A DNA stretch of 2,028 nt from a plasmid (GCF_058153355.1 NZ_JBLWLY010000003.1); one strand, 5' to 3'. Counted from the stretch's first letter, positions 1 through 1,693 are shown. Translations and numbers: made by a program. Notes: generated from the letters alone by a model not told the origin.

Positions 1-441
1 ATGAGCAAGGACACCCAGAGAATCACCCAGATTAACGATCAAGGTGAGATTGTTGGCGGCTTCGTCGCGGTAATCAGACCCAAGCAAAAATCGTCATTTC
101 AGAGGCATTTCACTATGAACCAAGACGCATTAAAGATCCTCGCTAAGGAGCTAACGGGCGAGCAATTTAAAGTTCTAATGCTCATGCTCGCTGATCTGGA
201 TTACGAGAATTTCATCCAAATTGCACAGGCTGATATAGCGGATGCATTGGAGATGCAAAAGACCCACGTAAGCCGCGCTGTTCGTGCTCTTCTTGATGTA
301 GGCGTGATCTTTGAAGGTCCGAAAGTAGGTAGATCCAAAACCTATCGGTTGAACGAGCAATTCGGCTGGAAAGGAACAGTAAGCAATCACAAAAAAGCCC
401 TTAAAAACGGCCTCAGCGTTATACAGGGCGGCAGAACCTGA
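1..441 (+). CDS. Putative plasmid replication initiator, winged-helix HTH, RepL-like (function tentative)
   Basis: Intact 146-codon ORF beginning with ATG at position 1 and ending with TGA at 439-441. The central segment (LTGEQFKVLMLMLADLDYENFIQIAQADIADALEMQKTHVSRAVRALLDVGVI) has the pattern of a MarR/winged-helix recognition unit. Overall length and layout resemble small RepL-family replication proteins (assignment from memory of the family, not from a search). It is paired with a relaxase gene as in small plasmids. An alternative internal start exists at ATG 115-117, preceded by AGAGG at 101-105. Confidence 0.6.
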   Translation: MSKDTQRITQINDQGEIVGGFVAVIRPKQKSSFQRHFTMNQDALKILAKELTGEQFKVLMLMLADLDYENFIQIAQADIADALEMQKTHVSRAVRALLDVGVIFEGPKVGRSKTYRLNEQFGWKGTVSNHKKALKNGLSVIQGGRT

Positions 442-504: not shown

Positions 505-1473
505 CTAACGCTCCATACCACCCATGCCACGCGATCGCGTCTGTCGCTGTTTTTCACGTTCAATACGCTGCTGTTTTTCCTTTTCCTGGTTTTGCTGCTT
601 AAACCGCTGAGCCATCATCAGGATTTCGGTCATCTGCTCTCTGGAAAGCCCCTTAAAAGGCTCTGTAACGCTCTGTAGGCGTTTCTGCTGCGCATCCATA
701 GTCTTCTGTAGCTCACGCGCTCTTTTTGCGTTCTGGGCGCTCTGAGAGGCCATAGCGATGGTTCCTGCAAAGCCATCGTTCACTGCGTGGCTTAGACGTT
801 TGGCTATGGCTGCCTGATCTTCCACGTCTTTGGTGAAAATGCCCTTCCGCAATACACGCGGCTCCAGCGCCTCCGGCGAGATCGATACCTGGCTACGGGT
901 GCCACGGTTTATCGATTCGTAGTAGTGCTGAACTGTCTGATGCGTGGCGCGGCTTCCCTCGATGCCGCGCTCAAGACCCAGTTTTTTTACTGATTCAGCG
1001 TAGGTGCTCTGATCTTCACGCATCTTTGACCGCCCGCCAATAAACTCTTTCGCGGACAGCCGTCCATCCTGCGTCAATGGCACCACGAACGCAGACAGGT
1101 GCGGGGTGGCCTCGTCCCGGTGAACCACCGCCGCCACAACACGATCCTTCCCGTATTTCTTCTCCAGCCATTGCTCAGAGCGGGCGAAAAACTCCGCCTG
1201 CTGCCGTGGTGTGGCCTCTTTCCACCACTCAGGGCTTGCTGTCATAACGTATTCAACGGCCAGTACCGCATCTTTACGGCGTTTTTCCGGCAGCAGCTCC
1301 CGCACACGCCCCATTGCCTGATCCGTTGATTTGGACACAGAGCAGTAGTTTTCTGGTGTCCGTTCAGCGTTAGCGTTCGGCGTCTCACGCTCTCGGTAGC
1401 AGTGCTGCAACGCGCTGGCCACGCTTCCCATTCCCGTCAGCTTTTTGCAGCGCATTATCGCGTAGTTCGCCAT
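505..1473 (-). CDS. Plasmid mobilization relaxase, Mob_Pre / MobV family
   Basis: Minus-strand ORF with stop TAG (complement of 505-507). The N-terminus MANYAIMRCKKLTGMGSVASALQHCYRERETPNANAERTPENY matches the Mob_Pre N-terminal signature (YA-x-R-x-KK ... H-x-x-RE ... N-x-N). An internal HRDEATPH segment resembles the metal-binding H-x-DE-x-x-PH motif of this family. The C-terminal ~70 residues are Q/K/E/R-rich and coiled-coil-like, as in MobM-type relaxases. I chose the start at ATG 1471-1473 because a six-G run (complement of 1477-1482) lies 3 nt upstream as a Shine-Dalgarno; the ORF track's longer start at 1492-1494 has no visible RBS. Confidence 0.85.
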   Translation of the reverse strand: MANYAIMRCKKLTGMGSVASALQHCYRERETPNANAERTPENYCSVSKSTDQAMGRVRELLPEKRRKDAVLAVEYVMTASPEWWKEATPRQQAEFFARSEQWLEKKYGKDRVVAAVVHRDEATPHLSAFVVPLTQDGRLSAKEFIGGRSKMREDQSTYAESVKKLGLERGIEGSRATHQTVQHYYESINRGTRSQVSISPEALEPRVLRKGIFTKDVEDQAAIAKRLSHAVNDGFAGTIAMASQSAQNAKRARELQKTMDAQQKRLQSVTEPFKGLSREQMTEILMMAQRFKQQNQEKEKQQRIEREKQRQTRSRGMGGMER

Positions 1474-1482: not shown

Positions 1483-1539
1483 TGATTCCGGCATTCATTC
1501 AGCCAGGCGGGGGAGCGCATTGCGATACCTCCGGCGGGC

Positions 1540-1567
1540 CACTATCAAGATGATAGTGTACTCACTA
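1540..1567. other. Candidate oriT / relaxase operator: nested overlapping inverted repeats upstream of mob
   Basis: CACTATCA (1540-1547), AGA spacer, TGATAGTG (1551-1558) form a perfect 8-bp-arm inverted repeat. TAGTG (1554-1558) also pairs with CACTA (1563-1567) across loop TACT, giving mutually exclusive alternative hairpins. MobV-family oriTs (for example pMV158) are known to lie just upstream of the mob gene and to consist of overlapping inverted repeats with the nick site in a GTG-containing loop; here the segment sits ~70 bp upstream of the mob start. On the minus strand TTGATA (complement of 1544-1549) could serve as a -35 for the mob promoter. Confidence 0.45.
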
Positions 1568-1591
1568 GACTTTGCTTCGCAAAATCGTTCG

Positions 1592-1605
1592 GGCAGCAAG
1601 CTGCC
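1592..1605. repeat. Short inverted repeat GGCAGC-AA-GCTGCC
   Basis: 6-bp arms at 1592-1597 and 1600-1605 are perfect reverse complements. Function unknown; may be an accessory part of the oriT region. Confidence 0.3.
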
Positions 1606-1693
1606 AGAAGGTCAAAATCAACGGCGGTCTGGCAGGTGGAAGGCGTCGCTCCGCGCCACCCCCACCACTGCCAAGCCTGTTTTATCCGGAGTG

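Follow-up and report, generated by a model that had tools for sequence, protein, structure and literature searches.

A probable pBBR1-type origin of transfer upstream of the mobV gene of a 2-kb mobilizable plasmid

Genes and repeats of the plasmid

The stretch of DNA analysed here (2,028 nucleotides, hereafter the window) is a complete circular plasmid; it is matched at full length by E. coli plasmid pB349aT_3 (NZ_CP091776.1) and by more than 12 further 2028-bp records from E. coli, Shigella and Klebsiella (99.9-100% identity, full length), and 573 plasmid records share part of its sequence. The plasmid and its relatives are thus very common in clinical and animal Enterobacteriaceae. The NZ_CP091776.1 record is typed as mobilizable with a MOBV relaxase and carries two annotated genes, and an oriT annotation is absent from the database records of the 2-kb plasmid. 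Near-identical contigs of the plasmid or its relatives (L062, L033/L035/L087, L070 and L066) are also filed under unlikely hosts, namely Arthrobacter mobilis, Flagellimonas spp., a Mycobacterium sp. and a Bacillota MAG, which could reflect contamination, mis-binning or real spread; L066 holds two oriT cores on one 3.2-kb contig.

The first gene (1-441, plus strand; NZ_CP091776.1 annotation) encodes a small winged-helix Rep-like protein of 146 aa. Two direct repeats of 21 bp (1966-2010), 90% identical and each with the palindrome GTTACCAATAATGGTAAC, closely precede it on the circle and resemble iterons or a Rep operator. Between the convergent stops of rep (441) and mobV (505) lies an 8-bp hairpin with a palindromic loop, GCCGCAAA-TGACGTCAC-TTTGCGGC (452-476), which may be a bidirectional terminator despite the lack of a T-run. 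A perfect 10-bp inverted repeat, TCGTCAAGGG and CCCTTGACGA separated by 22 nt (1694-1735), is located in the unannotated segment 1620-1960, between the putative oriT and the repeats near rep. Scanned in full against Rfam at E ≤ 1, the window, this 10-bp repeat included, gave no match, indicating that the hairpins are explained by no known RNA.

The second gene, mobV (505-1473, minus strand), is supported by NCBIfam, Pfam and the NZ_CP091776.1 annotation and encodes a relaxase of 322 aa. The protein scored 161.9 bits against the NCBIfam MobV model NF041497 (cut-off 100) and matched Pfam Mob_Pre with an E-value of 5.7e-45. Furthermore, its identity to pBBR1 Mob is 55% over 285 aa (E 4e-114), rising to 67% in the relaxase domain (first 190 aa); by sequence, the protein belongs to the clade of pBBR1, the plasmid named as the prototype of MOBV2 (PMC3632715). 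A PDB search returned a single match, MobM of pMV158 (4lvi, E 2e-15), with His23 of the window relaxase aligned with His22 of MobM. According to Pluta et al. in 2017, this His22 is reportedly the catalytic nucleophile of MobM. The metal-binding motif III (1099-1128, minus strand; Mob residues ~116-125) reads HRDEATPHLS against HLDESTPHMH in MobM, so that the third His of the MobM motif is replaced by Ser in the window relaxase and by Thr in pBBR1, suggesting that metal coordination in MOBV2 may differ from that in MobM. A mechanical reading of the mobV frame starts at ATG 1494 (329 aa), the annotated one at ATG 1473 (322 aa). Since the homologues all begin with MA(x)YAIMR, as in MAAYAIMRCKK of pBBR1 Mob, and since the purine-rich GGGGGGAA precedes ATG 1473, the 322-aa start is likely.

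Upstream of mobV, the original prediction had proposed an oriT built from nested inverted repeats. Its three repeats are present exactly as described, CACTATCA-AGA-TGATAGTG (1540-1558), TAGTG-TACT-CACTA (1554-1567, hereafter the nested repeat) and GGCAGC-AA-GCTGCC (1592-1605), all read on the plus strand, and the first of them lies 67-85 nt from the mob ATG at 1473, in agreement with the proposed position close upstream of mob. To judge them against chance, we generated 500 dinucleotide-preserving shuffles of the window and searched for perfect hairpins with a stem of at least 8 bp and a loop of 2-12 nt. As a result, 31% of the shuffles held at least one such hairpin, and two, the number in the window, occurred in 8.6%; chance alone would readily yield a 5-bp repeat. 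The repeats alone are therefore not significant, and the verdict rests on comparison with relatives.

Hairpins and their conservation among relatives

An 83-nt query based on the pBBR1MCS vectors was 100% identical to positions 836-918 of pBBR1 from Bordetella bronchiseptica (NC_025015.1), and this segment aligned with 1509-1588 of the window at 82.9% identity (E 3e-12). Szpirer et al. are said to have characterised the pBBR1 origin and mapped its nick in 2001 (J Bacteriol 183:2101). The pBBR1 oriT contains an 8-bp inverted repeat with a 3-bp spacer (PMC3632715), and such a repeat is present in the window 5' of the predicted nick, in the hairpin designated H2.

Read along the minus strand, the segment has the order 5'-H3 - CGAAC - H2 - TAGTGAG/TA - H1 (CACTATCA TCT TGATAGTG) - GCCCGCCGGAGG-3', where the slash marks the predicted nick. 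H3 (1592-1605, minus strand) is a perfect, GC-rich hairpin, GGCAGC-TT-GCTGCC, at the outer edge of the MOB module. H2 (1568-1586, minus strand), GATTTTGC-GAA-GCAAAGTC, has an 8-bp stem with one G.T pair and a 3-nt loop, and is indicated by folding, covariation and the pMV158 alignment. The nick region, 5'-TAGTGAG/TA-3' (1559-1567, minus strand), is followed by H1 (1540-1558, minus strand), a perfect 8-bp stem with a 3-nt loop that begins, on the strand presumed to be transferred, 2 nt 3' of the predicted nick. The conserved box GCCCGCCGGAGG (1528-1539, minus strand), found in most of the 27 relatives described below, pBBR1 included, lies between H1 and the mob leader and is possibly part of a putative Mob-bound or promoter-proximal region. 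As single-stranded DNA, the calculated stabilities were -6.1 kcal/mol for H1, -4.1 for H3, -3.4 for H2 and -2.7 for the nested repeat; H1 is the most stable hairpin of the region, 0 of 200 shuffles being as stable, and the minimum free energy (MFE) fold of either strand consists of H1 and H2.

Sensitive blastn with 1474-1640 retrieved 224 plasmid records, in which the distant matches converged on 1528-1591; these came from Bartonella grahamii pBGR1, Pseudomonas fragi pPFS, an Aeromonas plasmid, a Providencia plasmid, Pasteurella pCCK381, and Salmonella and E. coli plasmids of 2.5-2.7 kb. Eleven aligned loci kept a fixed order of CCTCCGGNGGGCC, H1, the invariant GTACTCACTAGACTTT and H2, the last as ACTTTRY-NNN-RYAAAGT. 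We also scanned representative-genome contigs for the 15-mer TACTCACTAGACTTT, which gave 105 loci, mostly chance occurrences that were filtered by the required flanking architecture, and the plasmid loci together with the filtered 15-mer loci yielded an alignment of 27 distinct origins (A1). The nick region TAGTGAG/TA is invariant in 27 of 27, an invariance of the core that is partly circular since most of these origins were picked through the exact 15-mer, whereas the first 11, found by blastn, were not.

The structure was scored in A1 over H2 (8 pairs) and the outer 6 pairs of H1. As a result, 91.5% of the cells were paired, compared with 34-47% in controls slid by 1-3 columns, double-sided changes occurred at 7 of the 14 pairs, and the pairing, double changes and covariation score were reached by none of 500 shuffles. 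For H1 alone, 93.8% of the cells were paired in the 27 relatives and double-sided changes were found at 5 of the 6 outer pairs; its stem types, among them CACTATCA, CACCAT, CACTTC, CACTTG, CTCTTG, CTCTTTG(A) and ACTCAA, follow the Mob clade, as with CACTATCA versus CTCTTTGA. H2 has compensatory GC<->AT and CG<->TA changes at two pairs, and its internal pair 32-46 is T.G in eight sequences, the window included; since this T.G would be C.A on the plus strand, it lends modest support to folding of the minus strand. The repeat at 1592-1605, noted in the original prediction as adjoining, is H3 and recurs at the same place: in ~19 of the 27 relatives, a perfect and mostly GC-rich hairpin of at least 5 bp in the stem stands 2-8 nt 5' of H2. 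Some ten unrelated stem sequences are represented, the hairpin is absent in 5-6 relatives, and a compensatory change between C-G and A-T separates L062 from the window.

This conservation spans plasmids of Alpha-, Beta- and Gammaproteobacteria. Wherever a locus has sequence on the mob side, a mobV homologue (40-100% identity) follows the core at a distance of 65-150 bp, in unchanged relative orientation, except in pCCK381. On that IncQ-like, MOBQ-typed florfenicol-resistance plasmid (NC_006994.1, 2473-2624), an orphan core with H1, nick region, H2 and H3 is found downstream of repC, with no mobV homologue within 2.5 kb on either side.

A reading of the repeats as chance features or ordinary intergenic terminators without any role in transfer would be in keeping with the frequency of 8-bp hairpins in shuffled windows, and a promoter and terminator scan of the window called no T-run terminator or promoter near the oriT. 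However, strong covariation and positional conservation across three proteobacterial classes, the 83% identity to a characterised oriT and the fixed synteny with mobV all oppose this reading, to which we give practically no credence. H3 was also considered as a terminator and rejected, as no T-run follows it on either strand. The segment 1528-1605 is, with high probability, the plasmid's origin of transfer, of pBBR1 (MOBV2) type, as both the homology to the pBBR1 oriT and the adjoining MobV relaxase gene indicate. An oriT for a MobV relaxase had indeed been the central claim of the original prediction; its choice of pMV158 as the model has to be amended, since the closest characterised relative is pBBR1, and the homology to the pMV158 origin holds by alignment at the level of the superfamily.

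Predicted nick, putative mob promoter and possible roles of the hairpins

The nick is predicted on the minus (mob-coding) strand between 1561 and 1560, on the basis of a secondary table (PMC5789077) and of the alignment with pMV158. The pBBR1 nic is listed there as GTATA/CTCAC (Table S1, citing Szpirer et al. 2001); because the table gives the reverse complements of the nicked strand, the nicked strand of pBBR1 would read GTGAG/TATAC, and because its pMV158 entry is off by one relative to the published G/T, the position carries an uncertainty of 1 nt. The window contains GTGAG TACAC on the minus strand (1565->1556), a match in sequence to GTGAG/TAYAC, and pMV158 ATAGTGTG/TT aligns with the window nick region. 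The pBBR1 nick corresponds to that of pMV158 (PMC4981023), in which the transferred strand is the coding strand (PMC5863519); the motif likewise stands on the coding strand in the window, hence the prediction of the minus strand. A literature search with the nick-region string returned unrelated papers only.

The original prediction had located the nick in a GTG-containing junction, and the nick predicted here does fall inside 1554-1562. However, the relevant GTG appears to be that of the invariant 5'-CTAGTGAG/TA-3' (1568->1559) on the minus strand rather than the plus-strand TAGTG. As originally conceived, the plus strand would be processed, TGATAGTG would switch its pairing leftward (H1) or rightward (TAGTG/CACTA), and the nick would lie in the plus-strand junction TAGTGTACT. 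Both repeats do exist, plus-strand GATAGTGT resembles TATAGTGT of pMV158, and a 4-bp AGTG/CACT is kept in 22 of the 27 relatives; moreover, Calothrix p6 carries GAAGTG-AGTA-CACTTC, a 6-bp repeat in the same register that overlaps another 7-bp repeat, so that the idea has a counterpart in the superfamily, although it is unsupported within the pBBR1-type family. Here, plus-strand TGATAGTG is simply the variable arm of H1, which reads ATGGTG, GAAGTG, CAAGAG, AAAGAG or TTGAGT in relatives, whereas the invariant GTG motif is on the minus strand. The nested repeat is 82% paired in A1 only because one of its arms is the invariant nick sequence; it has no double-sided change, its outer pair is broken in 17 of the 27, it is 3.4 kcal/mol weaker than H1 (-2.7 versus -6.1 kcal/mol), and the MFE folds use H1 and H2 instead. 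Being weak and without covariation, it gives no demonstration that the element is built on such a mutually exclusive switch, and since the homology to the pMV158 minimal target (IR1+8, see below) and the listed pBBR1 nic also indicate the other strand, we regard processing of the plus strand as very unlikely. A further plus-strand model, with H1 as the 5' hairpin and the nick 8 nt downstream in TACTCACT/AG, was rejected as well, because 2 nt, and not 8, lie between H1 and the pBBR1 nick as listed, the pMV158 homology is on the other strand, and the H2 wobble pairs fit the minus strand only.

With the nick placed on the minus strand, H2 stands 5' of it and, by analogy with pMV158, is presumably the main hairpin bound by the relaxase; this counterpart of pMV158 IR1 (1568-1586) was absent from the repeats originally listed. 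The same strand carries a candidate sigma-70-like promoter for mob, TTGCGA-16 nt-TACACT (1582->1555), found by pattern match, with its -35 element inside H2, its -10 element straddling the predicted nick, and H1 at the +1/operator position. A scan of the pBBR1 region called one sigma-70-like site, TTGCGA-16-TATACT, on the mob strand (9/12); the window site scores 8/12, which is below the scanner threshold, and its -35 element is not kept in all relatives. By this analogy, the window oriT probably holds the mob promoter too. pBBR1 Mob autoregulates by binding the promoter that overlaps its oriT (PMC4981023), and we infer that the layout in the window fits such autoregulation; with H1 at the operator position, binding of the relaxase would repress mob, as reported for pBBR1. 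The autoregulation suggested in the original prediction would be in keeping with an oriT that probably doubles as the promoter/operator of mob, with the reservation that the promoter-like site matches at only 8 of 12 positions.

H1 itself could serve in two ways. It might be a palindromic operator bound as a duplex by dimeric Mob, in which case the functional oriT would be H2 and the nick alone. H1 lies directly downstream of the -10-like hexamer, the minimal oriT of pMV158 is IR1+8 only (PMC3105389), MobM has been proposed to bind duplex IR2 and so silence mobM (PMC5863519), the autoregulation of pBBR1 Mob is on record (PMC4981023), and the H1 stem type tracks the Mob clade. Furthermore, a dimer site and a hairpin preserve inverted symmetry equally, so that covariation cannot separate these roles. 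On the other hand, a mere 2 nt separate H1 from the nick, no other hairpin of the region is as stable, and extrusion of H1 would expose the nick region as a single strand between H2 and H1, which makes a role in nicking equally plausible; moreover, the operator and nicking roles are not exclusive. A purely regulatory H1 is thus a genuine possibility, though one that we do not favour.

For the oriT of pBBR1 type, we propose that the MobV relaxase would bind H2 together with the 7-8 single-stranded nt 3' of it, by analogy with MobM on IR1+8, and would use His23 to cut the minus strand at the G/T phosphodiester between 1561 and 1560. The relaxase would stay on the 5' end and be exported with the strand via the type IV secretion system that a co-resident conjugative plasmid provides; transfer would begin with the mob gene and end with H2/H3, and rejoining would take place once H2 and the nick sequence are reconstituted. 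Extrusion of H1 may help to expose the nick, or H1 may be a duplex operator for Mob, or both. A more speculative and rather unlikely extension holds that only H2 and the nick are the conserved catalytic target, whereas H1 and H3 evolve fast yet remain paired, H1 as a clade-specific discriminator and H3 as an auxiliary structure of the trailing end. If true, H1 would couple each relaxase to its own origin and promoter, several MOBV2 plasmids could share a cell and a helper without cross-talk, and H3 would be a so far undescribed auxiliary structure.

Comparison with known MobV origins

The placed origin, with its probable nick and hairpin, offers a target for annotation, mobility prediction and the design of minimal mobilizable vectors. 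Since the pBBR1 origin was already characterised in 2001, no new principle is added; what is modestly new is the conservation of H1 and H3 in structure instead of in sequence, and the existence of orphan copies of the core, as in pCCK381.

Among MobV origins in general, a GTGnG or GTAAG pentamer beside TACAC is common to distant relatives chosen by protein. The pTA1060/pLAB1000-type origins, pTS1 and pZM3H1 resemble the window in having GTGnG/T or GTAAG/T beside TACAC (PMC5789077 Table S1), the nick region of pZM3H1 being ATAGTGAG/TTAC (PMC3606827). They differ in that their nick is in the loop of a 6-10-bp repeat, and the pentamer is often in the loop of a 6-9-bp repeat in the distant relatives as well (B. 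subtilis, Psychrobacter pP43BP2, pSES22; also pZM3H1), whereas the only equivalent pairing in the window is the 5-bp TAGTG/CACTA, or GTCTA/TACAC with a central mismatch. In Calothrix p6 (L120, 252-280), Nostoc pNPM3 (L119, 273-291) and K. oxytoca Col(IMGS31) (L122, 303-332), a GTGAG/GTGGG-type pentamer stands on the non-coding strand, in the loop of a 6-7-bp repeat; with the pentamer on the non-coding strand in some distant MobV homologues, the orientation of the origin relative to the relaxase gene is not fixed in the superfamily.

For pMV158, the ORIT oligonucleotide is GCACACACTTTATGAATATAAAGTATAGTGTG/TTATACTTTA, and the minimal target IR1+8 is ACTTTATGAATATAAAGTATAGTGTG/ (PMC3105389). We aligned the pMV158 42-mer with the minus strands of the window, pBBR1, pBGR1, pCCK381 and the Aeromonas plasmid (A2), a comparison with characterised origins that the original prediction had itself suggested. 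H2 fell on IR1 and TAGTGAG/T on TAGTGTG/T, with 18 invariant columns that include the G and T flanking the nick. Indeed, the minimal arrangement of pMV158, the IR1 hairpin followed by 8 nt and G/T on the coding strand, is matched in the window: both have a 7-8-bp hairpin (ACTTTAT..ATAAAGT in pMV158 versus AYTTTRY..RYAAAGT) and then 8 nt ending in TAGTGnG, /T. In both, the elements closely precede the relaxase gene on its coding strand, and the catalytic His is conserved; the pMV158 promoter also overlaps its oriT (PMC5863519).

Two further pairings of pMV158 were sought in the window. The IR3-type extension, in which GTGTG pairs with an upstream CACAC in pMV158, is not present there, AAC standing in place of CAC so that 2 of 3 pairs remain; the MFE fold of the window has no H2 extension, whereas pBBR1 keeps a 3-bp CAC/GTG version. 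The 9-bp IR2 of pMV158, which shares the right arm of IR1 and has the nick within it, is not in the window either, in which no repeat overlaps H2; the nick is enclosed only by the 5-bp TAGTG/CACTA, which overlaps H1 and does not covary. Instead, the window has a separate, covarying H1 located 2 nt 3' of the nick, together with H3 located 5' of H2. It also differs from pMV158 in the Ser that replaces the third His of motif III, and in its setting, since pMV158 is a plasmid of Streptococcus and the window plasmid is Gram-negative and apparently without rolling-circle replication.

The closest likeness is with pBBR1, the oriT of which has been characterised. Both share the succession of a GC hairpin, an 8-bp inverted repeat with a 3-nt loop, CTAGTGAG/TA, a second hairpin and GGCCCGCCGGAGG, with mob beginning ~50 nt further on, and both have the promoter-like TTGCGA-16-TAYACT at an equal position. 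They differ in the H1 stem, which is ACTCAA/TTGAGT in pBBR1 versus CACTATCA/TGATAGTG in the window; in H2, where the G.T mismatch is the window's, and where the CAC...GTG extension lengthens the pBBR1 stem and the window keeps 2 of the 3 pairs; and in the sequence of H3, which is not shared. The replicons are also distinct, with pBBR1 having its own Rep, and the window an unrelated one with the 146-aa winged-helix Rep and the 21-bp repeats. Judged by these comparisons, the window origin is an ordinary, hitherto unannotated oriT of pBBR1 (MOBV2) type.
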